From NCBI GenBank assembly GCA_000802045.1, contig JUEF01000034.1, forward strand, positions 839 through 64,838: a stretch of DNA of 64,000 nt, written 5' to 3'. Below, in pieces: positions 5,810-63,321 of this stretch; within the stretch, counting starts at the first letter, position 1, and each line of letters opens with the position of its first letter. Source of the DNA: Peptococcaceae bacterium BICA1-8. GTDB lineage: Bacteria; Bacillota; Peptococcia; Peptococcales; BICA1-8. A program made the position numbers and the translations under genes. A model generated the notes under the pieces. It was given only the letters and a program-made list of their open reading frames with translations. It was not told where the DNA came from and searched no databases.

Positions 5810-5836
5810 GTTTGGTTACCCCCTCTATCCAAAACT

Positions 5837-46991: not shown

Positions 46992-47891
46992 TTATCCTTT
47001 TTTTCCTGCTTTTTTGGAAAATAATGTTGTCAAAGGTGAAAAATCCTGTAATGTTAAATTAACCGCAGAAAATATGTCACCATATTTATCCAATCTATTT
47101 TTAACGTTAAAAATAGTAAAGTTATGTATATCTACACCTTTTTCAACCTCAGACCAGGTTAATGGGATAGAAACAAGAGCATTAGAGACAGGCCGAACAC
47201 TATATACTGAGGCCATTGTTTTACCGTAACCATTTTGCAGATAATCTAAATATACCTTTCCCTTCCTTTTAGATTTATTCAGTTCTGTTGTAACTAACCC
47301 CGGGAAGGTACATACCAAATTATTACACAAATTCTTTAAGGTTTCCCGAACTATAGGAAAGGAATAGCATGCTTGAATTGGGAGATAAATATGTAGTCCT
47401 TCCGAACCTGATGTTTTGGGAAAGCATTTTATATTCACACTATCTAGAAGCTCTTTAATTAATAATGCAACTTCTAAGGTGTGTGCAAATTGTGCTGGCG
47501 GTTCTGGATCTAAATCAAAAACAATTATATCAGGTTTATCTAAATTAGGAAGTTTACTAAGCCAGTGATGTAATTCAATACATCCCAAATTTATTAACCA
47601 AATCAAGGTATCAACATCATTACATAAAATCATCTTCCGGTCATCCAAGGTTATTGTTTTAACCCATTCCGGGGTATGAGTGGGGCTTTGTTTCTGGTAG
47701 AAAGCTTTGCCCCTTATGCCATCAGGATATCGCTTCATTACAAAGGGCCGATTCTGCAAATGTGGTAAAATATATTCACTTAACTCCAGATAGTATTTTA
47801 TTAAATCCCCTTTAGAAATCTTTTCTTCAGGCCAAAAAACCTTTTCTAGATTACTTAATTTTATTTCATGATTAGCAATTTTTACTAACAT
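46992..47891 (-). CDS. stand-alone LigD-type polymerase/primase domain (NHEJ PolDom, AEP superfamily)
   Basis: 299 aa. LSNLEKVFWPEEKISKGDLIKYY..., VMKRYPDGI and IVFDLDP...KTSGSEGLHIYLPI match the LigD polymerase domain pattern. No ligase or nuclease domain is fused to it. Confidence 0.85.
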   Translation of the reverse strand: MLVKIANHEIKLSNLEKVFWPEEKISKGDLIKYYLELSEYILPHLQNRPFVMKRYPDGIRGKAFYQKQSPTHTPEWVKTITLDDRKMILCNDVDTLIWLINLGCIELHHWLSKLPNLDKPDIIVFDLDPEPPAQFAHTLEVALLIKELLDSVNIKCFPKTSGSEGLHIYLPIQACYSFPIVRETLKNLCNNLVCTFPGLVTTELNKSKRKGKVYLDYLQNGYGKTMASVYSVRPVSNALVSIPLTWSEVEKGVDIHNFTIFNVKNRLDKYGDIFSAVNLTLQDFSPLTTLFSKKAGKKG

Positions 47892-49060: not shown

Positions 49061-49264
49061 CTATTCGTTAGATTCTGCTTGATTTTCCCCTTCGATAGTA
49101 GCTTCTAAAATTTCCTTCCATTCCTCAAAAACCCTTTGTTTTCTGTTCTTTTTTTCTTTTCTAATAAACTCCTCTAAAAAATATAACTGATTAGTTTCCA
49201 ACTGCTTGATTTGCTCTTTAATTGCCTCAAGCTGTTCATCCTCATATATCAGCTTAATTAACAC
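49061..49264 (-). CDS. small acidic coiled-coil protein, hypothetical (67 aa)
   Basis: GTG start 9 nt after AAGGAG. E/K/Q-rich helical sequence with no recognisable family. Confidence 0.4.
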   Translation of the reverse strand: MLIKLIYEDEQLEAIKEQIKQLETNQLYFLEEFIRKEKKNRKQRVFEEWKEILEATIEGENQAESNE

Positions 49265-49331
49265 AGCTTTCCGCTCCTTTTTGACTGATTTTTATCTCTA
49301 AAAATACTACCCTTTATAATTCTACATAATA

Positions 49332-49367
49332 ACAAAGAAGCCTTTATGTAAAAAAAGGCTTCTTTGT
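49332..49367 (-). terminator. terminator-like hairpin after comM
   Basis: Perfect 11-bp stem ACAAAGAAGCC / GGCTTCTTTGT, 14 nt after the comM stop. The U-tract is weak (TATTATG). Confidence 0.5.
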
Positions 49368-49380
49368 AAGAAAATACTCC

Positions 49381-50910
49381 CTAATCCCAAATCTTCCTGT
49401 CTAAAGACCTATACTGAATAGCCTCAGCTATGTGTTGGATATCAATTTGTTCTTTTCCCTCCAAATCTGCAATTGTTCGGGCAACTTTTATAATCCGATC
49501 ATGTGCTCGTGCAGTAAGTCCCAATTTATCAAATGCTTGTTTTAAAAGGTTTTTGCTTTCATTCTTTAAAGAACAGAACTTTCTAACGTCCTGTGTCTTC
49601 ATCTCAGAATTGGTAAAAATACTTGTATTATTAAATCTTTCCAGTTGAATTTGCCTAGCTCTTTCTACCCTTAGGCGAATTGTAGCACTTTCTTCCTCTA
49701 AGACTTCTGACTGTAATTCCTGAAATTCGAGTCTTGGAATCTCTAGGTGCAAATCTATTCTATCTAAAAGGGGTCCCGAGACCTTATTTCGATATTTCTG
49801 AGCCATATGTGGAGTGCATGTGCATTCTTTAATTGTATCACCATAATACCCACATGGACAGGGGTTCATTGCTGAAACCAAAAGAAATTTAGCAGGATAT
49901 GTTAGTTGGGCTGCAACACGCGAAACAGTAACCTTACCTTCTTCTAAAGGCTGTCGTAATGCTTCTAGGATATCCTTAGGGAACTCAGGAAATTCATCCA
50001 TAAATAAAACCCCATGATAACTAAGGCTTATCTCACCTGGAGTAGGTATCCTTCCACCTCCAATAATGCTTGCCTGGGAAGCACTGTGATGAGGTGCTCG
50101 GAAAGGTCGCTGATTAATTACCGGCTGTTGAGAGGGCAATAAACCAGAAATACTGTATATTTTTGTTATATCTAGGCATTCCTTAAAGGTTAATGTTGGC
50201 ATAATACCAGGAAGACATCGAGCCAGTAGAGTTTTTCCGGAACCTGGTGAACCTACCATTAGAACATTGTGATTACCAGCAGCTGAAATTTCTAAAGCTC
50301 TCTTGGCCTCTGCCTGACCTTTAACATCTCTAAAATCATAATCTAGAAAGGTCTCCTGCTGAAATAAATCCTCTAACTTTGGTGCTTGAACAGGCTTAGT
50401 TTGCTTAGGGTAAATAAGAAAATCAACTACATCCTTTAAATACTCAAAGCAATAGGTGGGGGTACCCCCTAATGCACCTTCGAGACCATTTTCCATAGGT
50501 ACAATTAGGTTATATTCACTTTTAGCCAGATGCAAAGAAATAGGTAAAACTCCATTTACCTTGCGCAGCCTGCCGTCTAAACCTAATTCTCCTACAGCCA
50601 TAATGTTATTTAATTTTTCAATTTCTAACTGATTTGTCGCAGCTAAAATAGCAAGTGCAATTGGTAAATCAAAGCTGGGGCCTTCTTTTTTGAGATGAGC
50701 CGGAGCCAAATTTACGACAATCCTCCTAGGTGGAAAGTCAAAACCTGAATTCCTTATAGCGGTTCTAACCCTTTCCTTGCTTTCTTTAACTGCGGTATCC
50801 GGAAGTCCTACTATATCCCAAGCCGGAAGCCCGCCTGCTGCATCAACTTCAATTTCAATCTCAAAAACTGATAAGCCCATAAGAGTAGAGCTTTTTACAT
50901 TTGCAAGCAT
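49381..50910 (-). CDS. comM: Mg-chelatase-like AAA+ ATPase YifB/ComM
   Basis: 509 aa with an N-terminal Lon-like domain (GLPAWDIVGLPDTAVKESKERV), Walker A GSPGSGKT, Walker B VLFMDEF and a C-terminal Mg-chelatase domain. Confidence 0.94.
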   Translation of the reverse strand: MLANVKSSTLMGLSVFEIEIEVDAAGGLPAWDIVGLPDTAVKESKERVRTAIRNSGFDFPPRRIVVNLAPAHLKKEGPSFDLPIALAILAATNQLEIEKLNNIMAVGELGLDGRLRKVNGVLPISLHLAKSEYNLIVPMENGLEGALGGTPTYCFEYLKDVVDFLIYPKQTKPVQAPKLEDLFQQETFLDYDFRDVKGQAEAKRALEISAAGNHNVLMVGSPGSGKTLLARCLPGIMPTLTFKECLDITKIYSISGLLPSQQPVINQRPFRAPHHSASQASIIGGGRIPTPGEISLSYHGVLFMDEFPEFPKDILEALRQPLEEGKVTVSRVAAQLTYPAKFLLVSAMNPCPCGYYGDTIKECTCTPHMAQKYRNKVSGPLLDRIDLHLEIPRLEFQELQSEVLEEESATIRLRVERARQIQLERFNNTSIFTNSEMKTQDVRKFCSLKNESKNLLKQAFDKLGLTARAHDRIIKVARTIADLEGKEQIDIQHIAEAIQYRSLDRKIWD

Positions 50911-50985
50911 GATATCCTCCGATAAAAAAATTGTAATATAATATATTACAATTTTACAGATATCGGCAAATATCCTTCTTTTTTA
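50822..50985. repeat. direct repeat copy A: comM codons 1-30, the ATG and the promoter block (attL-like)
   Basis: 50822-50910 matches 61890-61978 at 87/89 nt (80 consecutive identities). 50960-50985 is identical to 62027-62052. The centre (50911-50959) has diverged. Confidence 0.9.
50919..50985 (-). promoter_or_regulatory. sigma-D (sigma-28)-like promoter plus long imperfect palindrome in the comM leader
   Basis: Minus strand reads TAAA (50985-50982), a 14-nt spacer, then GCCGATAT (50967-50960). Then comes the palindrome CCGATA...ATTGTAATAT-ATT-ATATTACAAT-TTTTTTT-ATCGG, running into the SD GGAGG. Confidence 0.4.
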
Positions 50986-51189
50986 AGAATATTAATAAAT
51001 TACGTGATAATATACAGGTAATGCATACGCGTTAAATAGATTTTATTAGAACTGAGTCTATAATAAACATTATTCCAAAGTCACTAAATTTCCATGCAAG
51101 ATAAGAACTGGTCTGCCCCCCAATAAGTATACAAAAGTCTCTAATAATAATCAAAGAGTTATCACTAGACGTATTTGGGATAAAATAAG

Positions 51190-51368
51190 AAAGAAAATAT
51201 GAGCGAAGTTTTGCAGATGGCATGGAACCGCATGGACTTCGCTATCGTAGGTTAAATTTTGGAAGATAAAATATCCAAAAATAGGCGACAATGACGGCAT
51301 GTCAGAATATGAAAAAGATCGCAAATCATCTAGCTAAGGTAAGCTAGGAAGGTTTGCGACCTTTTTTT
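51190..51368 (+). ncRNA. candidate structured small RNA at the island's left end
   Basis: Weak promoter TTGGGA-17 nt-TATGAG (51175-51203). Hairpins AGCGAAGT/ACTTCGCT (51202-51209 / 51236-51243) and TTTTGGA/TCCAAAA (51257-51263 / 51274-51280), then a strong terminator. No convincing ORF (only 18-codon peptides). Confidence 0.25.
51319..51368 (+). terminator. rho-independent terminator (works in both directions)
   Basis: Nested stems TCGCAAA/TTTGCGA and CTAGCT/AGCTAG followed by TTTTTTT (51362-51368). The minus-strand version is followed by TTTTTC. Confidence 0.6.
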
Positions 51369-51410
51369 GTTACTATATTTTCGAATAATACTAAAAATAG
51401 TAACTTTTTT
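51369..51410 (+). terminator. second, back-to-back terminator hairpin
   Basis: GTTACTAT...ATAGTAAC stem (51369-51376 / 51397-51404) followed by TTTTTT. Confidence 0.5.
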
Positions 51411-51602
51411 ATTAGCTCCAAAATAAGCGTTTAAAATAAACGGGGTTTTTTCTACAATCTGAAGTATTATTTTCCCTTATTACATTTTCTAAAATTCAAT
51501 TCATTGGTATTTCCAAGACCAGACCCTCTCTTAATCCCGTATGTTATCCCTACCATTTACAATAAACTGGAAACTCCCTGGATTTTGAGAGAATTTTATA
51601 TA

Positions 51603-52967
51603 TCAAGCACTTATTTTTTCTGAATATTGAGGTAAATAATTCTTTGCAATACCATATTTCATCATTAGGTAATAAGATAGTCCAGCGGGAATTAAGCTAA
51701 TGTACCAGGAAAGTTGAACCTCAATTGCACCAAAAATAGCACCAATAACTATGGCAATAATGCCTGCCCAGTTGACCGATTTATATGGTCCATTTACATC
51801 ATACAAAACATTAAGGTCTAGCTGTTGTTTTCTAAAGAAATAATAGTCGACAACCAACACTGCAAAAATTGGGCCTAGAAAAACAGAGTATATTTGAATA
51901 AATAAGAAAAACCCCCCTGCTGTTGCAATTTTCCATGGGAATGTTAAAAATGCAAGTAAGCCAGTGATAACCGATCCTTTTTTCCAATCTATCCCAAATA
52001 AATCCATCATAACATACGTTGGAGGGACAACGTTTAACATAATATTAGTTGTAATTTGTGCGAGTACAACGAAAAAGAGGGCAGCGACAAGAACAAGCTT
52101 ATTAGGAAGTAGTTCAACAAATAAGTGAATAGGATCCCATTGACCAGTGACCCCCGCTGCAAGTAGCCCAATTACAGCCATAAATAAGGTAGTAGGAAGA
52201 GTTCCTACTATGTGAAGGATAAACATTAGTTTAGTGGTGCTGGATTTATTAAATTCCCTTGTATAGTCACTGATATTTAACATTAATGTAGTATAAATTC
52301 CGATAAATGCTGTAGTACCTCCCCAGAAAGCCAATCCCCAGGTTCCTGGTATGTTGATTATCTTTTCCTGTACTTGTGATCCATAGGCTGCATAAATTAT
52401 ATAAAGCATCCAGCATAACGAAATCATAATTATAACAGCACCAATATTTTCTAACCATTTGATTCCTTTAAACCCAAGTATTGACAGTAGGATCTGGAAT
52501 AGTTGGAATGTAACAAACCAGAACATAGGGCTATCAAAACTAAACAATTCGACAGAAATAGCATTTAGTGCCAATCCGCCAACCCAGGTCTGCACACCAT
52601 ACCAAAATATCGCTGGAACAGCCCTTATTACTCCGGGTAATTTTGAACCTTGAATTCCAAAGGCCGACCTTGCCTGTATGATAAAAGGGATACCATATTT
52701 ATGACCCGCTTGACCATTTAAGGTAAAACAGAAAGATACAATAGTCATTGAAACAATCATACATACAAAGGCTTGGAGGAGATTAAGCTTTCCTACGGGG
52801 GGGACTAAACTCGCACCCAGCATAAAGTATCCAATAAAAACACAACCACCAATCCAGGCAAACAAATATGATAAATTACCCATTATCCTATTTTCTTGGG
52901 GAAGTAAACTTTCCTCACCAAAACCCTTTTCTTCTACAACCGCTTGTACAGTTAACTTTTCTTCCAT
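51603..52967 (-). CDS. NCS1 family nucleobase/hydantoin/allantoin:cation symporter
   Basis: 454 aa, ~12 TM segments. The N-terminal region (NLSYLFAWIGGCVFIGYFMLGA) and overall pattern match NCS1 (Mhp1/PucI-like) permeases. Confidence 0.9.
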   Translation of the reverse strand: MEEKLTVQAVVEEKGFGEESLLPQENRIMGNLSYLFAWIGGCVFIGYFMLGASLVPPVGKLNLLQAFVCMIVSMTIVSFCFTLNGQAGHKYGIPFIIQARSAFGIQGSKLPGVIRAVPAIFWYGVQTWVGGLALNAISVELFSFDSPMFWFVTFQLFQILLSILGFKGIKWLENIGAVIIMISLCWMLYIIYAAYGSQVQEKIINIPGTWGLAFWGGTTAFIGIYTTLMLNISDYTREFNKSSTTKLMFILHIVGTLPTTLFMAVIGLLAAGVTGQWDPIHLFVELLPNKLVLVAALFFVVLAQITTNIMLNVVPPTYVMMDLFGIDWKKGSVITGLLAFLTFPWKIATAGGFFLFIQIYSVFLGPIFAVLVVDYYFFRKQQLDLNVLYDVNGPYKSVNWAGIIAIVIGAIFGAIEVQLSWYISLIPAGLSYYLMMKYGIAKNYLPQYSEKISA

Positions 52968-53035
52968 TTATTTTCCTCCTTTTTCTTGTTTTTCCTAGCT
53001 TTTTACAGGCCGGGAAAATAATTATTTGTCTTATT

Positions 53036-54430
53036 TTATAATCCGGAATAGGCAGTTCCATAAGGTTCACCCTTAATAAAAGACCCCTGTCCTAATTCTC
53101 CTAAAAATATTCCTTTTTCAGCCACAAGTTTACCCCTTAAAAAGACCTTATCAGCACGCCCTATTTGTTCCATGCCTTCATAAGAAGAGAAGTCAACTCC
53201 CTGTAAGCTGTTTTCAACTGCAATTCTCCCTTTCCAAGCTGGGTCAAACAATACAAAGTCAGCATCCGCACCAACTCCAATATGCCCCTTTCTTGGGAAT
53301 ATCCCATTAAATTTTGCAGGAGCTGTTGCAAAAACATCAACTAGCCTTTGACGGGTAATTCTTCCTTTTTCTACGCCATATGTCCAGAGAATGGCTAGGC
53401 GGTTCTCAACTCCTGGCGCTCCATTGGGTATTTTCGTAAAATCATAGTACCCTATATGCTTTTGCTCTTTCCAGTTAAATCCACAATGGTCAGATCCAAC
53501 AACTTGCAACCAACCCTTTTGTACAGCCTGCCACATAGCTTCAAGATGTTCAGGAGTTCGTAATGCAGGGGAGCATACATATTTAGCCCCTTCAAAATCT
53601 GGCTTTGCAAGGTTATCAACTGTCAAAACCATATAATGAGGACATGTTTCACCATAGATGGGAAGGCCCTTGGCAAATGCATCACGAATTGCCTCCATTG
53701 CCCCTATGCAGCTTACATGAACCACAAATAAAGGTGCTCCGGCCGCTTCAGCTAAGGTAATGGCACGGGATGTACATTCTGTTTCCACAATAGGAGGCCT
53801 GGAAACTGCATGATATTTAGGCTCCAATTGACCAGCTTCTACACATTGTTTTTGTAAAACATCAATTATATCACCATTTTCTGCATGAACCATCATGGTA
53901 ACTCCTGCTTTTTTTGCTGCCTGAAGACCTCTAAAAATTACACCATCATCACACATAAAAGGTGTGCCTTTATACGCCATGAACATCTTTAAAGTTGGTA
54001 TGCCAATCTCAGGAAGCTTAGGTATCTCCTCAAAAAGTTCATTAGTCACATCCATTACCATCCCGTGGAAACTGTAGTCGACCATAGCCTTACCTTTAGC
54101 CTGTTCCTCAATATGCTTCGCAACTGATTCTCTTAGGCTCATCCCTTTAGGCTGAGGAACAAAATCTACTATTGTGGTTGTACCACCTACAATTGCAGCA
54201 TTGGTAGTTTCAAATCCCCTTGTATATGTACCTCCGAAAGGCAGTGCAAAATGGGTATGTTGATCTATTCCACCAGGAAGTACATACATCCCCGCGGCAT
54301 CCACAATCTCCCTGGCCCTCCCGTCCAATCCTTCTCCAATTGCAATAATTTTTTCTCCTTCAACCAGAATATCAGCTTTATACTCATCCAAAGAAGTCAC
54401 AATAATTCCATTTTTAATCAATAAACTCAT
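53036..54430 (-). CDS. D-hydantoinase / dihydropyrimidinase (cyclic amidohydrolase)
   Basis: 464 aa. It aligns in my reading end to end with Bacillus-type D-hydantoinase. Matching motifs: GGIDQHTHF, KMFMAYK (carbamylated Lys), VHAENGD, GSDHC, FTKIPNGAPGVE and DADFVLFDP. Confidence 0.92.
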   Translation of the reverse strand: MSLLIKNGIIVTSLDEYKADILVEGEKIIAIGEGLDGRAREIVDAAGMYVLPGGIDQHTHFALPFGGTYTRGFETTNAAIVGGTTTIVDFVPQPKGMSLRESVAKHIEEQAKGKAMVDYSFHGMVMDVTNELFEEIPKLPEIGIPTLKMFMAYKGTPFMCDDGVIFRGLQAAKKAGVTMMVHAENGDIIDVLQKQCVEAGQLEPKYHAVSRPPIVETECTSRAITLAEAAGAPLFVVHVSCIGAMEAIRDAFAKGLPIYGETCPHYMVLTVDNLAKPDFEGAKYVCSPALRTPEHLEAMWQAVQKGWLQVVGSDHCGFNWKEQKHIGYYDFTKIPNGAPGVENRLAILWTYGVEKGRITRQRLVDVFATAPAKFNGIFPRKGHIGVGADADFVLFDPAWKGRIAVENSLQGVDFSSYEGMEQIGRADKVFLRGKLVAEKGIFLGELGQGSFIKGEPYGTAYSGL

Positions 54431-54477
54431 GCTTTTCCTCCTTTAAATTTATTAAAATAAAAAAAATTTCACCTCCT

Positions 54478-55728
54478 CTAAGTTTTTTTGGTTAAGCTGG
54501 AAGTAAGTTTATATACCACATTAAGCAATAGTTCACAACCAGCCTTAATATCTTCATAACTTGTTAATTCTTCAGGGACATGACTCCTGCCCCCAATACT
54601 GGGCACGAATATCATTCCGACATTGGTAATACCGCCAAATAAACAGGCATCATGCCCAGCACCGCTGTTCATTTTTTTATAAGGAAGTCCTTTTTCTATT
54701 GCAGTTTCTTCAATTAAATTTACTAACTCGTTTGATAAAATAATAGGATTCGATTCGCCTAATAATTTCATAGATGTACTTAAGTTGAATTTCTTTGAGA
54801 TTTCATTAAGCTTTTTCTCAACCTCATTGAGTATAATTCTTATCCCTTCCGGGTTTGTATCTCTAACATCAAGAGTAAAATTTATTTTTCCGGGAATGAC
54901 ATTAGGGACATTTGGATGACAAATAATTTTACCAACAGTAGCAACTGTTGACGGATAAGCCGTTCTAGTTTTACTATTAATGGTAGTAATAACCTCTGAT
55001 GCTCCTACCAGAGCATCATTCCTCATAACCATAGGGGTAGCACCTGCATGATTTGGTACTCCTCTAATTTCAATTTCAAACCATTTAATACCAGCAATTG
55101 CTTCAACTATTCCTATTGGTTTTTTTTCACTTTCTAACACAACACTTTGTTCGATATGAAGCTCAATCATAGCCATAATATCCCCGGTTTTTATTAAGTA
55201 TTTCTGCGAACTATCAGGATCAAAACCAACTTCTTTTGCAACTTCATACATGGATAAGCCCATACTGTTTTTGATACTCTTAATTTCATCAATCCCGTAT
55301 TTTCCTGTCAATACTTTACTTCCTGCCATAGTTGATCCAAAATTTGACCCCTCTTCTTCTACAAAAATAATCAGTTCTATAGGAATATCATTTTTTATAT
55401 TGTTTTCTTTGAAAACTCTAATTACCTCAAGGGATCCTACTACTCCCAAAACACCGTCAAAAATACCTCCGTGAAGCACTGTATCAATATGGGAACCAAT
55501 TAGAACTGCAGGTGCATCCTTCATACTGCCTTCCAATCGAGCACGAATATTTCCTACCCCGTCAATGCTAGTAGTAAGTCCTAGTCTGTTTATCTCCTCA
55601 ATGAGGTAATTTCTTGCCTTTGAATCTTCTGGGCTGTATGAAAATCTAGTACAACCTTGTCCTGGTGTTGCATTGAATTCAGCAATTTTTTCAATATCTC
55701 TTTTTACTCGGGATATGTTAATCTCCAT
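54478..55728 (-). CDS. M20-family N-carbamoyl-amino-acid / beta-ureidopropionate / allantoate amidohydrolase
   Basis: 416 aa with GSHIDTV, FVEEEGSNFG and HAGATPM motifs, typical of the AmaB/AllC/hydantoin-utilisation-protein-C subgroup of peptidase M20. Confidence 0.88.
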   Translation of the reverse strand: MEINISRVKRDIEKIAEFNATPGQGCTRFSYSPEDSKARNYLIEEINRLGLTTSIDGVGNIRARLEGSMKDAPAVLIGSHIDTVLHGGIFDGVLGVVGSLEVIRVFKENNIKNDIPIELIIFVEEEGSNFGSTMAGSKVLTGKYGIDEIKSIKNSMGLSMYEVAKEVGFDPDSSQKYLIKTGDIMAMIELHIEQSVVLESEKKPIGIVEAIAGIKWFEIEIRGVPNHAGATPMVMRNDALVGASEVITTINSKTRTAYPSTVATVGKIICHPNVPNVIPGKINFTLDVRDTNPEGIRIILNEVEKKLNEISKKFNLSTSMKLLGESNPIILSNELVNLIEETAIEKGLPYKKMNSGAGHDACLFGGITNVGMIFVPSIGGRSHVPEELTSYEDIKAGCELLLNVVYKLTSSLTKKT

Positions 55729-55945
55729 TAATAATTCACCCTTTTTCTTATTTTTAAAAAGTATTATCCTTCATTTATTTATTGATCTTATACCTTTTAG
55801 TAAGGATGCATTTGCGTTTTTATATTGCTCTAATTCATGGGACTAGCCGCCACTTTACAGATAATCTTTCTTTCTATTCTCATTAATTTACGTCTTTCGA
55901 GATTTTGATTATTTATTTTTACCTCCTTTTCCTTAGAAAGACATG

Positions 55946-56260
55946 TTACTCCTTCCAAACTGGTTTAGATTCTATAATTAAAATTGACGCAGTATCAGTT
56001 GTTTCTGGCTTATACAATATTCCTTTAGGAATAAATACACCTTCATTTTCTTCCAGTTGTATTACATCATTCTCCATAATAATAACTAGGTTACCTCTAA
56101 GAAGTAGGACAAATCTATCAGACTGTTCACTGGCAAACCAACAGGAGTCACTGTTAATGCGGCAAAAGCTTATTAAACAACCATTAAATTCAGAAAATTC
56201 AAATAGGTAAGTCTTGTCTAAGTCCCTTGATATATTATTAAAATTCATTTTCCTTAACAA
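55946..56260 (-). CDS. small single-domain cupin protein
   Basis: 104 aa (TTG start 10 nt after AGGAGGAGG). Beta-barrel pattern LLLRGNLVIIMENDVIQLEENEGVFIPKGILYKPE. First gene behind the sigma-54 promoter. Confidence 0.65.
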   Translation of the reverse strand: MLRKMNFNNISRDLDKTYLFEFSEFNGCLISFCRINSDSCWFASEQSDRFVLLLRGNLVIIMENDVIQLEENEGVFIPKGILYKPETTDTASILIIESKPVWKE

Positions 56261-56303
56261 TACTTCCTATCCTCCTCCTATAGAATTCTACAATATATTA
56301 ACT

Positions 56304-56319
56304 TGCAAAAATCATACCT
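56304..56319 (-). promoter_or_regulatory. sigma-54 (-24/-12) promoter of the cupin-carbamoylase-hydantoinase-permease operon
   Basis: Minus strand reads AGGTAT, a 5-nt spacer, then TTGCA, so GG-N10-GC is preserved. Lies 44 nt upstream of the cupin start. Confidence 0.55.
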
Positions 56320-56372
56320 GCTAATAATGTAGGCAAAATATTGATATACTTCTATTTAGCCATTTATTTTAG

Positions 56373-56405
56373 TGCATTTCTGCACACAATTTTGCATTAT
56401 TGCAC
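56373..56405. promoter_or_regulatory. candidate enhancer (UAS): two TGCATTNNTGCAC boxes
   Basis: TGCATTTCTGCAC (56373-56385) and TGCATTATTGCAC (56393-56405), 20 nt apart start to start. They lie 54-86 nt upstream of the -24 element. Confidence 0.35.
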
Positions 56406-56473
56406 TAATCTTTATATTGTAGTTTTCCTCCATTCCGTAGCCATTTTAAATGGATTAAATCATAACAAGAGAA

Positions 56474-56496
56474 AAGTTCCCTTTATTGGGGAACTT
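56474..56496 (-). terminator. terminator of the sigma-54 activator gene
   Basis: 8-bp stem AAGTTCCC / GGGAACTT followed on the minus strand by TTCTCTTGTT. Confidence 0.55.
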
Positions 56497-56523
56497 CTAA
56501 AAAACTTATCTCTTATACTACAA

Positions 56524-58605
56524 TTAATATACATCAGGTTTAGTGCTAAAGTATTTATTTGCTTTCCTAAGTATTGTCGTCCTATGAACACCTAATACTT
56601 CCGCCACTTTATTTATATTTGAATACTTTTGATATGCCATCATTATTAGGTCCTTTTCCAACCTTTCAACAGCTAAGTCCAAAGGTAAAATATTATTTAT
56701 CTGTAAAATATCCCTGGCAGTTTCCACTTCCTCCTGAAGTTCTCCTGGCAGCTGGTTAAGGTTTATGGTTTCACCTTCTATTGTTACTACCAGTCTCTCT
56801 ATCATATTTTCCAACTGTCTTACATTCCCCGGCCAAGAATATTGGATTAACCTTTCAATTGCTTCAGAACTAAAATGTTTTCTTAACAAATATTTTTCAC
56901 CAAACTTTGACAAATAGTAATTTACCAGGATTGGTATCTCATCCTTCCGCTCTCTTAGTGGAGGTACAATAATCGGAATAACATTTAAGCGATAATATAA
57001 ATCTTCTCTAAACTCGCCCTTATTTACCATTTTTATTAAATTTCTGTGAGTAGCTGCAATAATTCTTATATCCACTTCAATTGGTTTTATACCCCCAACA
57101 GGATAAAACTTTTTTTCCTGTATTAATTGCAATACCTTTACCTGAAGTGCTAAGGGAAGATCCCCTATCTCATCCAAAAACAACGTCCCTTTATTAGCCT
57201 GCAATACTAAACCAACTTTCCCTTCTTTTGAAGCCCCAGTAAATGCTCCCCTAACATATCCAAAAAGTTCAGACTCCAGTAAGTTTTCTGGAATAGCTCC
57301 ACAATTTATTTTTATAAAAGAATTATCTTTTCGTGCTGAAGAATCTTGAATAAACCTGGCAACCACTTCTTTTCCAGAACCGGATTCGCCGGTTATTAAT
57401 ACTGTAGTATCTACCATTGCCACCCTAGATGCCAGGTCTACAACCTTTGCCATCTTTGAACTTCTGGCAATTATTCTTTCCTCCGCCTTTTCCCTCCGCA
57501 ATTCACCTAATTCTTTTTGGTATTTTTTTAGAAGTTCTTCCGTTTCTTCCAGTTGAAGTTTCAACCTGCTTAATTCGGTAATATCATGAGAGAAGTTTAT
57601 TATCCTGTATAAGTTCCCATCATTATCAAAAATAGGTACACCGGTTACAAAAAGCCGTCTTCCGCCTTTCGTATCCTGAATTAGTGTCTGTCTTTTTTTT
57701 GTCTGCAAAACCAGGTTTGTCACTGATTTTGATAAAACACTAGTTTTTTCTAAGTCTTTTACATTTCTGCCAATGAACTCCTCCATCTTTATTCCAAACA
57801 TCTTTTCCAGGGATGAGCTGGCACGCAGAGCAATTCCATTTTGATCAATTACCGTAATTAAATCGTACGAATTATCCATAATAAACTCTAATTCTTGATT
57901 TAATGCTATTTCCTCGTCCAGTTTTTTTGATACTCTTTCCAAGTCGTTAATATTCTGGAATACTCCAATTGCACCCATTACTTTTCCGTCTTTTACTATT
58001 GAGGTTCTATTCGTAACAATAATATTACCATTTATTAGCTGTTTTTCTCCTGTTACACTCTCACCGGTTCTGCTTACTACTAACAATTGGGAGGTCGGAA
58101 TTATATCATATACTAACTTACCAACAGCATCACTTTTCTTAATTCCGCTTATTTTTGCAGATGCCTCATTAAAGATTGTTATATAACCCTCATCATCTAT
58201 TGCGATTATACCGTTATGAATTGAATCTAAAATAATATTTTGTTCAGTCAGTACGTGACCTAAAAGGCCGATACTGTTTCTGTTTATACCGCTAAGATAA
58301 CCGTCGTTTTCAATAATGATATATCTCTTCTCATTTCCTGTCTCAACTAGGCTTTTGCCTGTTACAAAAGTAAAATCTTTGTGAATAAAAGGTAAAATGA
58401 GACTGTCAAATTTTATATCTGAAGATGCTATCGCAGCTAACATATCTTCTAAAACCAGAACTCCTTCTACCTTTTTAGCATTATTACTTACTACGGGACA
58501 GTAATTAAGTTCACTTTTCGAGAACAGTGAGATAGCATCCATAATAGTATTATTCAATTTAATTAGCCCTTGAAAAGGCTTTGCAATTTCCCTATACAAT
58601 ATCAA
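56524..58605 (-). CDS. sigma-54-dependent transcriptional activator (CBS + PAS sensor, AAA+, Fis-type HTH)
   Basis: 693 aa. Has an N-terminal CBS-like segment and PAS repeats. AAA+ motifs are GESGSGKE and VRGAFTGA (GAFTGA loop), plus LFLDEIGDL. C-terminal HTH is INKVAEVLGVHRTTILRKANKY. TTG start 6 nt after GAGGTG. Confidence 0.93.
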   Translation of the reverse strand: MILYREIAKPFQGLIKLNNTIMDAISLFSKSELNYCPVVSNNAKKVEGVLVLEDMLAAIASSDIKFDSLILPFIHKDFTFVTGKSLVETGNEKRYIIIENDGYLSGINRNSIGLLGHVLTEQNIILDSIHNGIIAIDDEGYITIFNEASAKISGIKKSDAVGKLVYDIIPTSQLLVVSRTGESVTGEKQLINGNIIVTNRTSIVKDGKVMGAIGVFQNINDLERVSKKLDEEIALNQELEFIMDNSYDLITVIDQNGIALRASSSLEKMFGIKMEEFIGRNVKDLEKTSVLSKSVTNLVLQTKKRQTLIQDTKGGRRLFVTGVPIFDNDGNLYRIINFSHDITELSRLKLQLEETEELLKKYQKELGELRREKAEERIIARSSKMAKVVDLASRVAMVDTTVLITGESGSGKEVVARFIQDSSARKDNSFIKINCGAIPENLLESELFGYVRGAFTGASKEGKVGLVLQANKGTLFLDEIGDLPLALQVKVLQLIQEKKFYPVGGIKPIEVDIRIIAATHRNLIKMVNKGEFREDLYYRLNVIPIIVPPLRERKDEIPILVNYYLSKFGEKYLLRKHFSSEAIERLIQYSWPGNVRQLENMIERLVVTIEGETINLNQLPGELQEEVETARDILQINNILPLDLAVERLEKDLIMMAYQKYSNINKVAEVLGVHRTTILRKANKYFSTKPDVY

Positions 58606-58722
58606 TGGAATTCACCTCTTAGAATTTTAAATATAAAAGGAATTCTCTCTGTTTAATAAAAACCCTTTTATCTTAATATTTTTTTTTGAAAATTCTAATT
58701 ATTTAAACTAGTTATTTCTCGT

Positions 58723-58738
58723 TGGCATTATTCTTGCA
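58723..58738 (+). promoter_or_regulatory. sigma-54 (-24/-12) promoter of the C_GCAxxG_C_C gene
   Basis: TGGCAT-TATTC-TTGCA, a near-perfect match to TGGCAC-N5-TTGCW. Lies 40 nt upstream of the ATG at 58778 and is divergent from the activator gene. Confidence 0.72.
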
Positions 58739-58777
58739 ACATAATAGAACATATTAAGATATTTGGAGGAATTAGTA

Positions 58778-59287
58778 ATGGACATTGACTCCCTTCAACA
58801 AAATACAAAAGAACTCGCTGTGAAAAACTTTAAAGAGAGAATGAGCTGCTCAGAAGCTGTACTGTCAGCAGTAATTTCAGCCGGTTTAATAAGTTATCCA
58901 CGGGACATAGTTGCTCTGGCAACAGGATTTGGAGGCGGTATTGGTCTAGCGGGCTTTAACTGTGGTGCTCTTTCTGGTGCCGTCATGGCAGTTAGTGGAG
59001 TTCACGGCCGAAGAAACCCTATCACAGGGACGCCGGATGAAAGAACCCAACTTACTTATGGCAAAATATACCGCATATTTAATTCCCTCGTACAGGATTT
59101 CCAAGAAGAGCTTGGCTCTGTTGACTGTATGGAGTTGTGTAAAAACTATGATTTCAATACAAAGGAAAGATCAGAGTATTGTGCAGGCATTGTTGAATAT
59201 GCCACAACACTAGCAGTTTCCTACATAGCTCTTGGAGAATTCTACAGTACAAAATCCTATGGAAAAAATATGGCGGGTTTAAAATGA
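58778..59287 (+). CDS. C_GCAxxG_C_C family (putative redox-active) protein
   Basis: 169 aa counted from the ATG at 58778 (GGAGG 8 nt upstream). Contains MSCSEAVLSA and FNCGALSGAVMA, the family's C-GAxxG signature, plus C-terminal Cys residues. Confidence 0.85.
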   Translation: MDIDSLQQNTKELAVKNFKERMSCSEAVLSAVISAGLISYPRDIVALATGFGGGIGLAGFNCGALSGAVMAVSGVHGRRNPITGTPDERTQLTYGKIYRIFNSLVQDFQEELGSVDCMELCKNYDFNTKERSEYCAGIVEYATTLAVSYIALGEFYSTKSYGKNMAGLK

Positions 59288-59411
59288 TATTAGCATAATC
59301 AAAATTTTAAACTTCGGGGTTCCGGGGCAGAGCCTCCATAAATATCACTAGCTCCATTGGCATTCTTTCTACCCCATTCTTTCTTGCTTTCTTTGGTTTA
59401 AGCAATAATTA

Positions 59412-59439
59412 TTGATATATGTTCAAAACAGTATATAAT
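59412..59439 (+). promoter_or_regulatory. sigma-A-like promoter upstream of the glutamate-synthase-like gene
   Basis: TTGATA, a 16-nt spacer, then TATAAT. Lies ~95 nt upstream of the ATG at 59536. Confidence 0.45.
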
Positions 59440-59535
59440 AAAGTTGAATGGGGCATATGACCATAACTATAAGAGATACTGGTCTTTAATAAAAATGGGG
59501 ATATCTGTTTTTAATTATTATGCGGGGGTGATATT

Positions 59536-61089
59536 ATGTCTTATAGTCCATCATTAGGGAGTTCCATAACCAATACTAGAATGAGAACTCCGGAACATAT
59601 ATCTGATTTTTCAGGTATGTGTGCAGTATGTACAGCTAATTGTACAGGCCTTTGTGAAATAGGCCTATCTGCTATCCGTGGATCAGAAGCAATTTATCCT
59701 TATGCAATAGATATAAACCAATTTGCTTCTGAGAAAGAGTACCCATTGGATTTTTCTCATTTTAACATCAATGGGAGGGTATTTGGCGCATTAGGATGCT
59801 CTGAAGATGCTAATATGACAACTTTCCCTAAAGTAAGTATCAATACATCCTTTGGTATAAACAATAAAATCAATCTGAAAGCACCTATCCTTCTGCCGGC
59901 TATGGCTAAATTAAACTGGAAGGATTACTATGCTGGAGCAGCTTTAGCAGGTGTATTAGTGGTAATTGGTGAAGATGTAGTAGTAAAAGATAAGGGTTTA
60001 GTTTTAGAAAATGGTAAAGTTAGTAACTCACCTCTTATTGCAGAAATGTTAGCTTCATTTAAAGAGTATTATAATGGGTACGGGGATATTATTATTCAGG
60101 CTAATTATGATGATGAAAACCTGGGAGTATTAGATTATGCTATCACTAAATTGGAAGTAAAATCGGTAGAGCTTAAATTTGGGCAAGCGGCTAAAGGAAT
60201 TCAGGGGATGGGAAGAGTAAAAAATATTGAAGACGCACTAAAGTTTCAAGAAATGGGTTATTTAATTTATCCTGATCCCTCTGACCCAGTTGTAGCTGAA
60301 AACTACAAAAATGGTATAGGTCAAATATTTGAAAAAATAGGTAAATTACCAATGTGGAATGAGGACATATTGATTAAACGAGTCGCTGAGCTACGAGAGT
60401 TAGGGGCTGAACATATCTGCTTCAAAACTGGGCCTTTTGATCCGAAAGATCTGGTTAAGATTCTTAAAATTGCGTCAAAAGCTGGTGTGGATTTAGTTAC
60501 ATTTGATGGTGCTGGAGGAGGGTCTGGAAATAGTCCAACTAAAATGATGAATGAATGGGGTATTCCTACAGTTTATATGGAAAGTATGCTGTACGATATA
60601 TTAAAAAAGTTTAAAAAGAAAAATTATTCTATGCCTCAAGTTGCAATAGCTGGTGGGTTTGCTATGGAAGATCAAGTATTTAAGGGATTAGCATTGGGTG
60701 CTCCATATGTAAATCTCATAGGAATAGGTAGGGCTGCTATGGCAGCAGCATTAGTTGGCAAGCAAATAGGAGAATTAATAAATAAAGGAACAGTACCTAA
60801 AGAGTACCAGAGATTCGGCTCTACTTTAGAAGAAATATTTGCTGATATTAGGGAGCTTAAAGGTTTATATGGTAGTGATGCAAAAGATATTTCCCCTGGG
60901 GCAATAGGGGTATATTCATTTATAAATAGGATTTCTGCAGGACTACAACAATTCATGGCTCTCAACCGTAAGTTCGCTCTAAAGTATATTGATAGGAGTG
61001 ATATATTCCCTTTAACAGAAATAGCAGCTAAGATTACAGGGCTAGAGACATATACCGATATAGTAAACAGAGAATTAAAGAATCCCTAA
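59536..61089 (+). CDS. FMN-binding glutamate-synthase-domain-2-like oxidoreductase with an N-terminal Cys cluster
   Basis: 517 aa. The TIM-barrel GltB-FMN-type core contains VELKFGQAAKG, TFDGAGGGSGNSP and GGFAMEDQVFKGLALGA. An N-terminal CAVCTANCTGLCEIG motif (C-x2-C-x3-C-x3-C) is a presumptive Fe-S site. Confidence 0.88.
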   Translation: MSYSPSLGSSITNTRMRTPEHISDFSGMCAVCTANCTGLCEIGLSAIRGSEAIYPYAIDINQFASEKEYPLDFSHFNINGRVFGALGCSEDANMTTFPKVSINTSFGINNKINLKAPILLPAMAKLNWKDYYAGAALAGVLVVIGEDVVVKDKGLVLENGKVSNSPLIAEMLASFKEYYNGYGDIIIQANYDDENLGVLDYAITKLEVKSVELKFGQAAKGIQGMGRVKNIEDALKFQEMGYLIYPDPSDPVVAENYKNGIGQIFEKIGKLPMWNEDILIKRVAELRELGAEHICFKTGPFDPKDLVKILKIASKAGVDLVTFDGAGGGSGNSPTKMMNEWGIPTVYMESMLYDILKKFKKKNYSMPQVAIAGGFAMEDQVFKGLALGAPYVNLIGIGRAAMAAALVGKQIGELINKGTVPKEYQRFGSTLEEIFADIRELKGLYGSDAKDISPGAIGVYSFINRISAGLQQFMALNRKFALKYIDRSDIFPLTEIAAKITGLETYTDIVNRELKNP

Positions 61090-61099
61090 TTTAATCTTA

Positions 61100-61143
61100 C
61101 AAGGGAAGCCGATATCTACTAGATTAGATATCGGCTTCCCTTG
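61100..61143. terminator. 19-bp perfect palindrome 11 nt after the stop of the glutamate-synthase-like gene
   Basis: CAAGGGAAGCCGATATCTA - CTAGAT - TAGATATCGGCTTCCCTTG. No U-tract on either strand. Both arms contain GCCGATATC. Confidence 0.55.
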
Positions 61144-61481
61144 ATAAACCCCTGTAGCAATTTAAAGGTTTCGTTCTAAAGTAAGTAAAAAAAATCTAGC
61201 GTATAAAAAACAAGAGGCATCTAGATACATACTACATCTTGAATACCCCTTATCGTTGTTTTGGTGCGGTAGAGAAGACTTGCTTCAAAAAGATTAGACC
61301 GTTTTAGCCACCTTAATGTTGGTTAAGTTTGCCTATTTTTTTGCCAGCATCTACTAAATTTTTGATAGCATTTACATATGTTTTTTGGTATAGCAAATAA
61401 GGACAGAAGAAATGTTTCAGGTCAAATTATTGTATTTTGTACTAAAAAGACAAAGTTATTGAACTCTATTTTGCTCCTTAA

Positions 61482-61889
61482 TTATATATTATTCTTATTT
61501 ATGAAAGCTGAAGTTATTAGCCTCCTTATAACTTCAGCTTTACTGAATTTTAAAGAGGACTTGTATTTATTTAGGTCATTTGCTATTTGCTCTAGCTGCG
61601 CTAACTGTTTTTTAGAAAACTTAACATTCTTTCTTTTATCACCTACATTATCTTCAATATTCAAATTTTCTATTTGCTTTACTACCTTGTTATCAAAAAC
61701 TAAATCAGTTATCTTACGAATTATTTCTGCTTCACTAGAACCTTGCTTTTGTTTTAGGTGTTGTAAATATTCATTTTGGACTTCTGAAATAACAAAACCA
61801 TATTCTTTTAAACAACCATCCTGCTTCTTATTCTGTATATAGAAGTAATGCACATAATCTGGTTGGCGAACTTTCCTACCTTCTCCCAT
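61482..61889 (-). CDS. tandem ribbon-helix-helix (RHH/CopG-like) protein at the island's right border
   Basis: 135 aa with two RHH-like units. Unit 1: YGFVISEVQNEYLQHLKQKQGSSEAEIIRKITDLV. Unit 2: KNVKFSKKQLAQLEQIANDLN...FSKAEVIRRLITSA. The ATG lies exactly at the repeat junction. The antisense 154-aa ORF looks like junk. Confidence 0.6.
   Translation of the reverse strand: MGEGRKVRQPDYVHYFYIQNKKQDGCLKEYGFVISEVQNEYLQHLKQKQGSSEAEIIRKITDLVFDNKVVKQIENLNIEDNVGDKRKNVKFSKKQLAQLEQIANDLNKYKSSLKFSKAEVIRRLITSAFINKNNI
61836..61886. repeat. repeat X: 5' coding end of the RHH gene, duplicated at 62070-62119
   Basis: 46/51 identity with 62070-62119. The inner 33 nt (61854-61886 vs 62087-62119) differ at one position. 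Confidence 0.85.
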
Positions 61890-61978
61890 GCCGGCAACCC
61901 GCCTGCTGCATCAACTTCAATTTCAATCTCAAAAACTGATAAGCCCATAAGAGTAGAGCTTTTTACATTTGCAAGCAT
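61890..61978 (-). pseudogene. comM: orphan comM 5' fragment (codons 1-30)
   Basis: Encodes MLANVKSSTLMGLSVFEIEIEVDAAGGLPAW, identical to ComM residues 1-30. It then diverges (EKVGKFANQIMCITSIYRIRSRMVV, stop). Confidence 0.85.
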
Positions 61979-62052
61979 GTTTTCCTCCGATATTTGTAAA
62001 ATGTAATACTACTTATAATTTTACAAATATCGGCAAATATCCTTCTTTTTTA
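61890..62052. repeat. direct repeat copy B: displaced comM 5' end plus promoter (attR-like)
   Basis: See copy A. Contains TAAA-N14-GCCGATAT and a perfect 16-bp palindrome CCGATATTTGTAAAAT / ATTTTACAAATATCGG (61987-62002 / 62018-62033), followed by the SD GGAGG and the ATG at 61978. Confidence 0.9.
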
Positions 62053-62069
62053 GCAGATTTATTAATGTT

Positions 62070-62119
62070 TATATAAAAGTATAAACATAATCTGGTTGGC
62101 GAATTTTCCTACCTTCTCC
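62070..62119 (-). pseudogene. remnant of a second RHH-gene 5' end (older junction scar)
   Basis: Translates as GEGRKIRQPDYVYTFI then stop, compared with MGEGRKVRQPDYVHYFYIQ in the intact gene. It has no start codon and is truncated by the copy-B promoter block. Confidence 0.6.
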
Positions 62120-62225
62120 ACTCTTACTCCACTTATTGCATCAATTTAGAATTAAATATATTGAGATGGACCTATCTGGTTAGTCCTTATAAAACCTTAA
62201 AATGAAGTATTATAAGTATTCATTT

Positions 62226-62555: not shown

Positions 62556-63281
62556 TTAAACCCTTAAAATAGCTTCAATATATTTATCTGTTTGGACTAT
62601 AAAGTCACTATTATCTAAACCTTCCAATTTAGCATATTCTTGCATTGCTCTTTTCCCAGCAGTTAAAATGTGTCTTTCTAAAACTAATTTACAAGATAAT
62701 ACATCTCCTTTAATGATATATTCTAGCAACTCACTATGTTCTTTAATAGAAATTGTCCTATTATAATCTTTTTTAAGTGAAAATGACCTGAAAATTTTCA
62801 TTTTAACATCTAATGGCTCATAAATTTGCTTTAAAATATCTAATCCTGAAAAATTAATTAAAGAGGTATGAAATTCTCTATTAAGCTCTTGTATGATTCG
62901 AACTTCATTTTCTTTAGATGCTTTAACACTTTTATCAATAATTTTTTCAATTTTACTTACTATTTCATTTTTATTGTCTTTTATTGCTACAAATGAAGCT
63001 GCAAGACTTTCAGCAGAAGCACGAATAAAATAGACTTGACATATGTCCTCTAATGAAGGCTTATACACTGTTACAATTCCATTTTCACTTTTTAGTAATC
63101 CTTCACTACATAATATTCGAGCTGCTTCCCTGACTGGAGTCCTACTAATTCCCAACCACTCTGCTAATTGTTGATCAGTAAGTCTTTCCCCTGGTTTAAG
63201 ATCACCTTTTGTAATATCGTCTTTTAATTGATAATAGGCTTGCAAATACAAAGGTTCTACTTTAATCAGTTTACCTGTCAT
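62556..63281 (-). CDS. GntR family transcriptional regulator (FadR/FCD subfamily)
   Basis: N-terminal wHTH (LKPGERLTDQQLAEWLGISRTPVREAARIL) and a helical FCD-like C-terminus. I chose the ATG at 63281, 7 nt after GGAGG (241 aa). Confidence 0.88.
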   Translation of the reverse strand: MTGKLIKVEPLYLQAYYQLKDDITKGDLKPGERLTDQQLAEWLGISRTPVREAARILCSEGLLKSENGIVTVYKPSLEDICQVYFIRASAESLAASFVAIKDNKNEIVSKIEKIIDKSVKASKENEVRIIQELNREFHTSLINFSGLDILKQIYEPLDVKMKIFRSFSLKKDYNRTISIKEHSELLEYIIKGDVLSCKLVLERHILTAGKRAMQEYAKLEGLDNSDFIVQTDKYIEAILRV

Positions 63282-63321
63282 TAAGATTCCTCCATCAAGC
63301 GAAATATGAACTTGCACTTTA

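Follow-up and report, generated by a model that had tools for sequence, protein, structure and literature searches.

A recurrent comM-start module beside a recombinase-free hydantoin-utilisation block in a Peptococcaceae bacterium

How does a block of some 10.9 kb come to lie between two copies of the start of comM while encoding no recombinase of its own? The question is raised by a stretch of 64,000 nucleotides from Peptococcaceae bacterium BICA1-8 (assembly GCA_000802045.1, contig JUEF01000034.1, positions 839 to 64,838; the whole stretch is called the window in the following), in which an initial annotation, made from the letters alone, had recognized an accessory island bracketed by direct repeats of the comM (yifB) promoter and 5' end. 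The locus proves to be a genuine recombination site of an unusual kind. It holds a recurrent, lineage-restricted module, which consists of the comM promoter (P), the first codons of comM (comM'), a short element (X) and orfR, a gene for a putative tandem ribbon-helix-helix (RHH) protein. We see about an even chance that orfR-led cassettes, a family confined to this lineage, move in and out of the comM 5' end via recombination in the portable comM' segment, most simply by host homologous recombination.

Direct repeats at comM and the empty site

The gene and the two repeat copies are arranged as follows.

49381–50910, minus strand: intact comM (yifB), an open reading frame (ORF) of 509 aa with ChlI, Mg_chelatase and Mg_chelatase_C domains, equipped with the left (element-type) promoter and 5' end
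50806–50998, minus strand: left direct repeat (attL-type), promoter P_L and comM codons 1–35 (repeat search, alignments)
61874–62065, minus strand: right direct repeat (attR-type), host-type promoter P_R and comM codons 1–30(35) (repeat search, alignments)

Repeat search and pairwise alignment confirmed that the comM promoter and first 30 codons are directly repeated (50806–50998 and 61874–62065), with the duplication resolved by the repeat search into one segment of 119 nt (50806–50924 = 61874–61992, 93% identity, copies 11,068 bp apart) and another of 53 nt (50946–50998 = 62013–62065, 85% identity, 11,067 bp apart). The 87 identities in 89 positions first reported for 50822–50910 were recovered by pairwise alignment, as was the block of 26 identical promoter nucleotides upstream of the ATG; the perfect core, given as 80 nt, proved to be 82 nt long (comM −1 to +81, from the alignment and a codon table), and such a match cannot be of chance origin. 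Two mismatches had been described as synonymous, and so they are, but they occupy coding positions 82 and 84 (CTT/TTG); a third difference, at coding position 90 (GCT/GCA), lies just beyond 50822–50910, and all three are synonymous. Only the left copy enters the intact ComM ORF, as had been read. The right copy runs MLANVK...GGLPAW and then EKVGKFANQ..., a fusion ORF with a stop after 56 codons, so that it does depart from comM after GGLPAW, with EKVG following W30 where comM has DIVG. The comM-derived piece may nevertheless be 35 codons long, since the more divergent copies at two other loci (L166 and L167; loci are cited by number where they must be told apart) retain comM codons to 35.

A palindrome was noted between the -10 region and the ribosome-binding site in both promoter copies (50925–50975 and 61993–62040, minus strand), spelled TTGTAAAAT..ATTTTACAA in one promoter type vs AAAATTGTAATATA/TATATTACAATTTT, followed by a T-run, in the other. 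It may be an operator or an attenuator; RNAalifold detected no compensatory changes in this promoter/leader palindrome. The block ends contain no tRNA or Rfam elements.

A relative that lacks the block was found by a metagenome scan with ComM. This contig, Ga0209643_1000118 (L082), is about 91% identical to the window at the DNA level and its ComM is 93% identical to that of the window. Positions 63449–61884 of the window align with L082 8534–10095 at 96.9%, and positions 50996–39447 with L082 9913–21526 at 90.7%, while nothing in L082 is the counterpart of 50997–61883. In L082 and in a contig from a separate study (L177, 99.8% identical to L082 over 3 kb and of the same arrangement), a GntR gene, upstream sequence of the window's 62xxx type, the promoter and comM are contiguous, which constitutes a clean empty site. 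The empty site that had been predicted thus exists, and 50997–61883 is a true presence/absence polymorphism. The background identity of the two genomes is even, ~90–92% over 11.5 kb. P_R is ~96% identical to the L082 empty site over a 150-nt stretch (61983–62132), and P_L is ~86% identical to the empty-site promoter. It was likewise correct that the element brings a replacement promoter and 5' end and that comM remains intact, and that no integrase, transposase, relaxase or replication (Rep) domain is encoded in 50999–61873 (Pfam, NCBIfam). Of the marks of an integrative element, the target-gene direct repeats and the precise empty site (L082, L177) are therefore present, and an own recombinase is not.

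More distant genomes say less about the event. Among GTDB species representatives the closest ComM has 58% identity, too distant for an empty-site test. Outgroups at 73–79% ComM identity retain the synteny downstream of comM (Lactamase_B-like hydrolase, LigD Prim-Pol, dprA, topA, trmFO, xerC, hslVU, codY) and have no duplicated comM start; 70–90 nt upstream of comM they carry unrelated genes, and as a consequence the direction of the event, gain here vs loss in L082, is not polarisable.

The comM-start module and its recurrence

The unit that is repeated had been taken to be the comM 5' end. This is indeed present, but it belongs to a larger module, P-comM'-X-orfR, which also occurs away from comM and whose further parts are the following.

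61852–61886, minus strand: X_A, 35-nt element between comM' and orfR, nearly invariant across all module copies (repeat search, alignments)
61485–61853, minus strand: orfR, first gene of the cassette, putative tandem RHH protein of 123 aa from GTG (homologues P0002–P0004, weak RHH matches, PHROG 876)
50999–51099, minus strand: Y, ~100 nt upstream of P_L, which moves with the module; located upstream of P-comM' in L165 and L167, not in the empty site
62046–62134, minus strand: X_B relic, a second X with the degenerate first ~7 orfR codons and 12 nt (GTGGAGTAAGAG) upstream; also in the empty site

X forms a second direct repeat which had been overlooked: 61852–61886 equals 62085–62119 at 34 of 35 nt, extends to ~62–75 nt at ~85%, and brackets the right comM fragment. 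Further module loci were reached via homologues of the 135-aa ORF beside the right repeat (JM58_04180) and of the 56-aa comM'-X fusion peptide. The comM Ala-Trp codons supply the ATG (61889) of the 135-aa ORF; the likely start of orfR is the GTG at 61853, as annotated in the paralogues P0003 and P0004, and it is predicted that the displaced comM promoter transcribes orfR.

Three loci from rock-porewater assemblies (L162, L163, L164) show the order 12 nt, X_B, promoter, comM codons 1–30, X_A, orfR, with a junction identical to that of the window; their first ~290 nt are nearly identical to the right end of the window, and the flanking genes are others. L165, a second locus in the window's own sample and metagenome-assembled genome (MAG), has Y-P-comM'-X-orfR contiguously. 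In L166 and L167 a Y-like element, P and 35 codons of comM' precede diverged orfR homologues of 28–34% identity, while L176 contains the 12 nt, X and orfR without comM'. By blastn, window positions 51099/51094–50806 match L165 4046–4341 and L167 917–1196 at 83–85% (Y alone 73%), and P_L is accordingly of the Y-linked promoter type found in these two loci. Taken together, all four configurations expected from recombination between the module and comM exist: X_B-P-comM (B-type, L082 and L177), X_B-P-comM'-X-orfR (R-type, right side of the window and L162–164), Y-P-comM (L-type, left side of the window) and Y-P-comM'-X-orfR (P-type, L165 and L167). A host-type P_R combined with a module-type P_L bearing Y is the product expected from a P-type circle entering a B-type site. 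In every intact copy comM' is tied to orfR, including those in which OrfR has diverged to ~30% identity (L166, L167). The module has no match in IMG/VR, PLSDB or INPHARED.

The gene contexts of these loci differ. The comM' and diverged orfR of L166 (1323–9800) and L167 (1092–3895) lead into DUF7768 and Tad/Flp-pilus genes (RcpC, CpaE-like, CpaF, TadB, TadC), in L166 additionally into SatD and DUF3307. L165 has, next to selB, a HesB/IscA-like gene (1289–1588, plus strand) and a glutaredoxin-like gene (5546–5812, minus strand) with in-frame TGA codons, which are probably selenoprotein genes, and TrxB-like fragments adjoin its orfR module.

Recurrence bears on the simplest objection, namely that a chimeric join at a short repeat, made during assembly or binning, produced the arrangement. 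The data come from metagenome assemblies throughout, and the 82-nt core approaches short-read length. Both copies, however, have distinguishable flanks on either side and share only 85% identity in the promoter part; the left junction lies within a JGI contig (sample 3300002838) that is 100% identical over 49163–60910; orfR is recorded on two contigs; and four further independent assemblies of other samples (L162, L163, L164, L165) show the comM'|X-orfR junction again. We regard an artefact as extremely improbable.

OrfR would act as a regulator. The alignment of the family displays two copies of an RHH-like motif. RHH_1 is matched in six of the seven members (best 2e-4) and RHH_3 in three of the seven (2.4e-5), weakly and under the gathering score for the window protein, and PHROG 876, a phage 'transcriptional repressor', in seven of seven (best 2.7e-11); profile matches in the PDB are marginal (CopG 0.3, AvtR 0.03). 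The family is very narrow, with one other cluster among 1.84 billion representatives in an exhaustive HMMER pass, and exact-protein look-ups for orfR, the GntR gene and P0003 returned no match. The 35 nt of X are better conserved than the orfR coding sequence behind them.

Recombination at the comM start

The comM' copies carry a record of their own. Over codons 1–30 their differences are almost solely synonymous in a codon table; L165 differs from the window comM over these codons by nine nucleotides and no amino acid, and L167 from the L082 comM by two nucleotides and no amino acid. Since a dead fragment decaying neutrally would collect chiefly non-synonymous changes, the copies evidently stem from, or were exchanged with, functional comM alleles, and as far as sequence can tell they seem to be sampled from, and repeatedly exchanged with, live alleles. 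A private haplotype (codon 6 GTA) is common to both window copies over the 82 nt and is flanked by type-specific differences on either side. This tract can be rationalized by gene conversion or a heteroduplex, as is typical of homologous recombination; a site-specific exchange over a 6–8-bp overlap would not be expected to yield 82 nt. In-situ tandem duplication followed by insertion was also considered and is unlikely, given the patchy identity of the copies (100%, 85% and ~60%) and the occurrence of the P_L promoter lineage elsewhere.

The site also bears traces of former occupants. Positions 62046–62119 match 61825–61886 at 85% (E 4e-12), and the same X_B boundary is found in L162 and L176. 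The window, L082 and L177 all have this X/orfR-start relic upstream of P, and it is read as the scar of an earlier orfR cassette. L162 contains a second orfR (orfR1) 3.4 kb upstream of the intact module, after a collinear decayed promoter-comM' remnant (p ~0.013), and of its two consecutive orfR units the one farther from the intact comM' is decayed. From the relic and the decayed unit it follows that the site was occupied before and that older units decay. A further decayed comM'/orfR scar in the ~80 nt upstream of X_B (U') is suggestive (p = 0.08–0.3 vs shuffles). A similar proposal for Y (50999–51099) was withdrawn (p = 0.25–0.74 vs shuffles; an nhmmer profile gave no separation from shuffles).

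In the favoured account, each cassette would carry P-comM', that is, the comM promoter and the first 30–35 codons, joined via X to the tandem-RHH gene orfR, with some copies bearing the conserved ~100-nt Y on the far side of P. Recombination of this portable segment with the resident comM 5' region would lead to an insertion-duplication, in which the host promoter and its comM' would be pushed to the far end, there driving orfR, and the Y-P-comM' of the cassette would be joined to the comM body, such that comM would stay intact. The reverse event would remove the cassette precisely and leave an empty site as in the relatives. The enzyme would most simply be the host homologous-recombination machinery acting on ~190 nt of homology, and the route could be a Campbell-type crossover via a circular intermediate, or else a double crossover once donor chromosomal DNA has been taken up. 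Repeated use of the site is indicated by the remnant of a former orfR start upstream of the promoter. RecA dependence and the circular or transforming intermediate are what we infer here, as is the direction of the event (gain here vs loss in the relatives).

In this context one should recall Campbell-type insertion-duplication, by which a non-replicating plasmid with a promoter-proximal gene fragment integrates and one intact copy of the gene is left; islands can also be acquired by transformation through flanking homology. The present locus corresponds to the former in that a promoter-proximal fragment lies on the insert, a truncated and a complete copy stand in direct orientation with the insert between the direct repeats, and the homology of ~190 nt comprises an 82-nt identical tract with a private variant, here interpreted as a conversion tract; both are reversible and do without a dedicated recombinase. 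In contrast to the laboratory case, no replicon or vehicle was identified here. To our knowledge, there is no natural, recurrent and family-specific Campbell strategy in which a conserved portable arm is fused to a regulator gene.

On the other hand, the block could be a decayed, or a cis- or trans-mobilisable, site-specific integrative element, with the repeats as attL and attR. Its recombinase, directed at comM codons ~27–35, would have its gene at another place in the genome or on a helper element, unless it is lost, and the long duplication would merely serve to restore comM. The repeats had at first been interpreted along these lines. Direct repeats of a target-gene end do flank a block without a counterpart in the relatives, the replacement promoter and 5' end keep comM intact, and comM is a known target of mobile genetic elements (MGEs) (PMC4774983). 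In the window, L162 and L165 the junction coincides to the nucleotide, and ~50 nt of element-side sequence (X) hardly vary while orfR behind them diverges, as would be the case for conserved attP arms. Post-junction comM (TGGGATATAGTAGGA) and X (TGGGAGAAGGTAGGA) agree at 11 of 15 positions, and the 3' end of the right copy (TTGCCGGCA) is nearer to the empty-site allele (TTGCCGGCC) than that of the left copy is, as if the crossover had occurred at the extreme 3' end. A tyrosine-recombinase fragment ~3 kb upstream of comM in L082 points the same way. Yet no recombinase was found in, or within several kb of, any of seven related module loci (L162, L165, L166, L167 and L176 among them). The fragment in L082, the sole one of an integrase, lies amid debris of IS3 and a group II intron on the far side of GntR and AOR and does not adjoin the att-like site. 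The 82-nt private haplotype shared by both copies is not the expected product of a 6–8-bp overlap exchange; the module also stands in contexts other than comM (L165, L176, L162); and the missing matches in the phage and plasmid collections cited above speak against it as well. We therefore consider a site-specific element rather unlikely, and the initial interpretation as att sites is not upheld.

The nearest relatives of such an element would be the cis-mobilizable elements (CIMEs), which are integrase-less islands with att sites, for example those of Streptococcus thermophilus related to the integrative and conjugative elements (ICEs) ICESt1 and ICESt3. Like the block, CIMEs hold adaptive genes between direct repeats of a target-gene end, lack recombination and transfer genes of their own, and show relics of successive occupation, comparable to accretion. 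Unlike the present repeats, theirs are short att sites of a known ICE integrase, with such ICEs in the same species. In the present case neither a cognate integrase nor an ICE was detected in the block or beside the module loci, the repeat spans 190 nt of promoter and 5' coding sequence and includes a conversion tract, and a dedicated putative RHH gene belongs to the module. The term CIME is used in ICEberg 2.0 (PMC6323972) and in a review on integrative and mobilizable elements (PMC5704250).

Other systems share single traits with the locus. AbaR/Tn6022-type Tn7-like transposons target comM in Acinetobacter (PMC11014353), and integrase-bearing MGEs reside at comM in Aggregatibacter, Mannheimia, Francisella and Pseudomonas syringae (PMC4774983). 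The landing gene is the same, but these elements encode a transposase or integrase, insert inside the coding region and inactivate comM, whereas the block lacks either enzyme, joins at codon 30–35 and restores comM intact, in a Gram-positive Peptococcaceae lineage. The analogy with AbaR islands that had been drawn consequently fails, those being transposons that disrupt comM; no transposition genes were found in the block (Pfam, NCBIfam), comM is intact, and the repeats are direct and 190 nt long. Integrons are comparable in that cassettes appear to enter a fixed promoter-proximal site with older ones displaced and decaying, and in that units begin with a short conserved element, here X. They differ from the locus, which has no intI, attI or attC, comprises multi-gene operons with their own regulators, and is sited at the 5' end of a housekeeping/competence gene. 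An identity as integron was ruled out by the absence of an integrase (Pfam, NCBIfam) and of an attC-like imperfect palindrome in X (repeat search). Recombinase-less islands that are lost via repeat-mediated recombination are likewise bounded by direct repeats and have no recombinase; theirs are short repeats and the loss is RecA-independent, while the ~190 nt here copy a gene start. In form, the locus thus matches islands with a replacement gene end, in gene content the integrase-less CIMEs, and in product structure laboratory Campbell insertions.

One may also dispense with mobility altogether. P-comM'-X-orfR would then be an old paralogous duplication by which orfR was given a comM-like promoter and leader through regulatory co-option, and the hydantoin genes would be ordinary chromosomal genes, situated between this module and comM and lost in L082 and L177 by one homologous deletion across the two promoter copies. 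The chromosomal-looking contexts of the module in L165, L166, L167 and L176 agree with this, as does the constant position of comM' before orfR as a transcription unit. The compositional contrast of the block, by which a foreign origin was to be gauged, is weak (4-mer distance up to 0.016 vs 0.011 ± 0.0015; GC 0.37 vs 0.345 in the rest of the window), and the direction of the indel is not determinable. Against this stands the finding that P_L with Y represents a distinct promoter lineage (83–85% to L165 and L167, ~86% to the empty site, where P_R has ~96%), such that the left copy looks imported together with the block. Moreover, the orfR-start relic upstream of P in both the empty site and the window implies earlier turnover there, the synonymous-only comM' differences imply repeated exchange with live comM alleles, and the flanks of the module differ at every locus. 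An origin without mobility is in our judgement unlikely.

Several observations weigh against the favoured account of a cassette family. It stands without a circular junction, read-level heterogeneity or a donor, and gain vs loss in L082 is not polarisable, as stated. The P-type order of L165 is set in DNA of the same MAG that looks like ordinary chromosome (SelB, selenoprotein genes), from which it is evident that the module can also be a static paralogous locus, and in L176 X-orfR occurs without comM'. The end of comM' at the same nucleotide in all X-type copies fits one ancestral junction and equally a fixed site-specific crossover, and the post-junction sequence, with its resemblance to comM codons 30–35 (11/15 nt), could be a recombinase core. 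Only ~10 contigs carry the module, all of them metagenomic, and MAG binning could mix strains. Finally, the idea of Y as a scar failed the statistical tests.

If the cassette-family account is true, an adaptive gene block would be addressable to one chromosomal site, and removable again, with no dedicated recombinase, by carrying the start of a conserved gene, and islands with att-like repeats yet no integrase would have a possible explanation. It would also be a comM-preserving family, in contrast to the many MGEs that destroy comM to block transformation (PMC4774983), with a narrow, uncharacterized RHH family (OrfR) and the 35-nt X physically tied to the promoter of a competence gene in deep-subsurface Peptococcaceae. 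A bolder version, which we hold to be doubtful, describes recombinase-free gene capture, in which a portable comM' arm and a dedicated tandem-RHH gene would use host homologous recombination to stack polar cassette arrays upstream of comM without inactivating it, with OrfR and X as the family's own control module; the capture would possibly take place during natural transformation, the process served by comM. The locus is more than a variant of known systems only if the cassette-family reading is confirmed. Otherwise it still clearly exemplifies a recombination hot spot upstream of comM, at which a hydantoin-utilisation operon was demonstrably gained or lost.

Gene content of the block and flanking DNA

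Between Y and orfR the block contains the following features.

51100–51602, no strand: non-coding left end of the inserted block, short ORFs without family match
51603–52967, minus strand: NCS1-family nucleobase/hydantoin/allantoin-type permease (PF02133 1.2e-56; TIGR00800 3.9e-63, under the curated cut-off)
53036–54430, minus strand: dihydropyrimidinase / D-hydantoinase (TIGR02033 528.8 bits, cut-off 393)
54478–55728, minus strand: hydantoinase/carbamoylase-family M20 amidase, N-carbamoyl-amino-acid / allantoate amidohydrolase type (NF006771 479 bits, cut-off 399; TIGR01879 410 bits; Peptidase_M20)
55946–56260, minus strand: 104-aa ORF without assigned function (gene call in the JGI contig; no Pfam/NCBIfam match)
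56524–58605, minus strand: sigma-54-dependent activator with CBS and PAS sensor domains, PrdR-like (Sigma54_activat 7e-69, PAS, HTH_8; NF041552 1.6e-140, under cut-off)
58763–59287, plus strand: C-GCAxxG-C-C family protein (PF09719; TIGR01909)
59536–61089, plus strand: FMN glutamate-synthase-domain-like protein, 517 aa (PF01645 7.8e-11)

A hydantoinase, an N-carbamoyl amidohydrolase and an NCS1 transporter, the hallmarks of a hydantoin/dihydropyrimidine cluster, are all present, and the cargo is accordingly predicted to be a self-regulated, sigma-54-regulated utilisation cluster of the hydantoin/dihydropyrimidine type. A sigma-54-type -24/-12 site, TGGCATTATTCTTGCA, with one mismatch (58723–58738, plus strand), is situated 25 nt 5' of the C-GCAxxG-C-C gene and beside the divergent sigma-54 activator; across the window, such matches are no more frequent than expected by chance. 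Between the glutamate-synthase-like gene and the convergent orfR, a 44-nt stretch (61100–61143) is ~91% self-complementary and is probably a bidirectional terminator. The non-coding ends of the block showed no translated similarity to the fetched loci, and in 51100–51602 no gene remnant was detected, with neither blastn nor tblastx similarity to any of them.

Beyond the right repeat the chromosomal flank contains one further gene that is shared with the empty sites.

62556–63317, minus strand: GntR/FCD regulator with a strong terminator behind it (62259–62230); synteny shared with L082 and L177

Within it, 62583–63182 is 100% identical to L082 (99–100% for the gene), vs a difference of ~9% across 11.5 kb beyond comM; the adjoining intergenic DNA differs from L082 by 3–11%. 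This tract suggests very recent recombination in the neighbourhood. Import of a 1.57-kb GntR-promoter piece from an L082-like donor by homology-facilitated illegitimate recombination, based on the right flank being 97–100% identical vs ~91% elsewhere, was rejected as the main account of the locus, because the AOR-GntR-promoter synteny is shared, with L082 keeping the AOR 3' end, and because the comM'|X junction also occurs outside this genome. Upstream of GntR in L082 (6867–8661) only the last 50 codons of the AOR gene are left. Before them lie fragments of an IS3 transposase and of a group II intron reverse transcriptase, as well as the C-terminal part of a tyrosine recombinase; the AOR ORF of the window extends past 64000.

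On the other side, 1.5 kb downstream of comM, a stand-alone LigD primase-polymerase gene of the non-homologous end joining type (46992–47891, minus strand) lies between a metal-dependent hydrolase gene and dprA, an arrangement that is kept in two relatives of 77–78% ComM identity (L168, L170). Positions 1–39000 are occupied by a long minus-strand gene array, which past codY, hslVU, xerC, trmFO and topA leads into an apparent flagellar/chemotaxis cluster.

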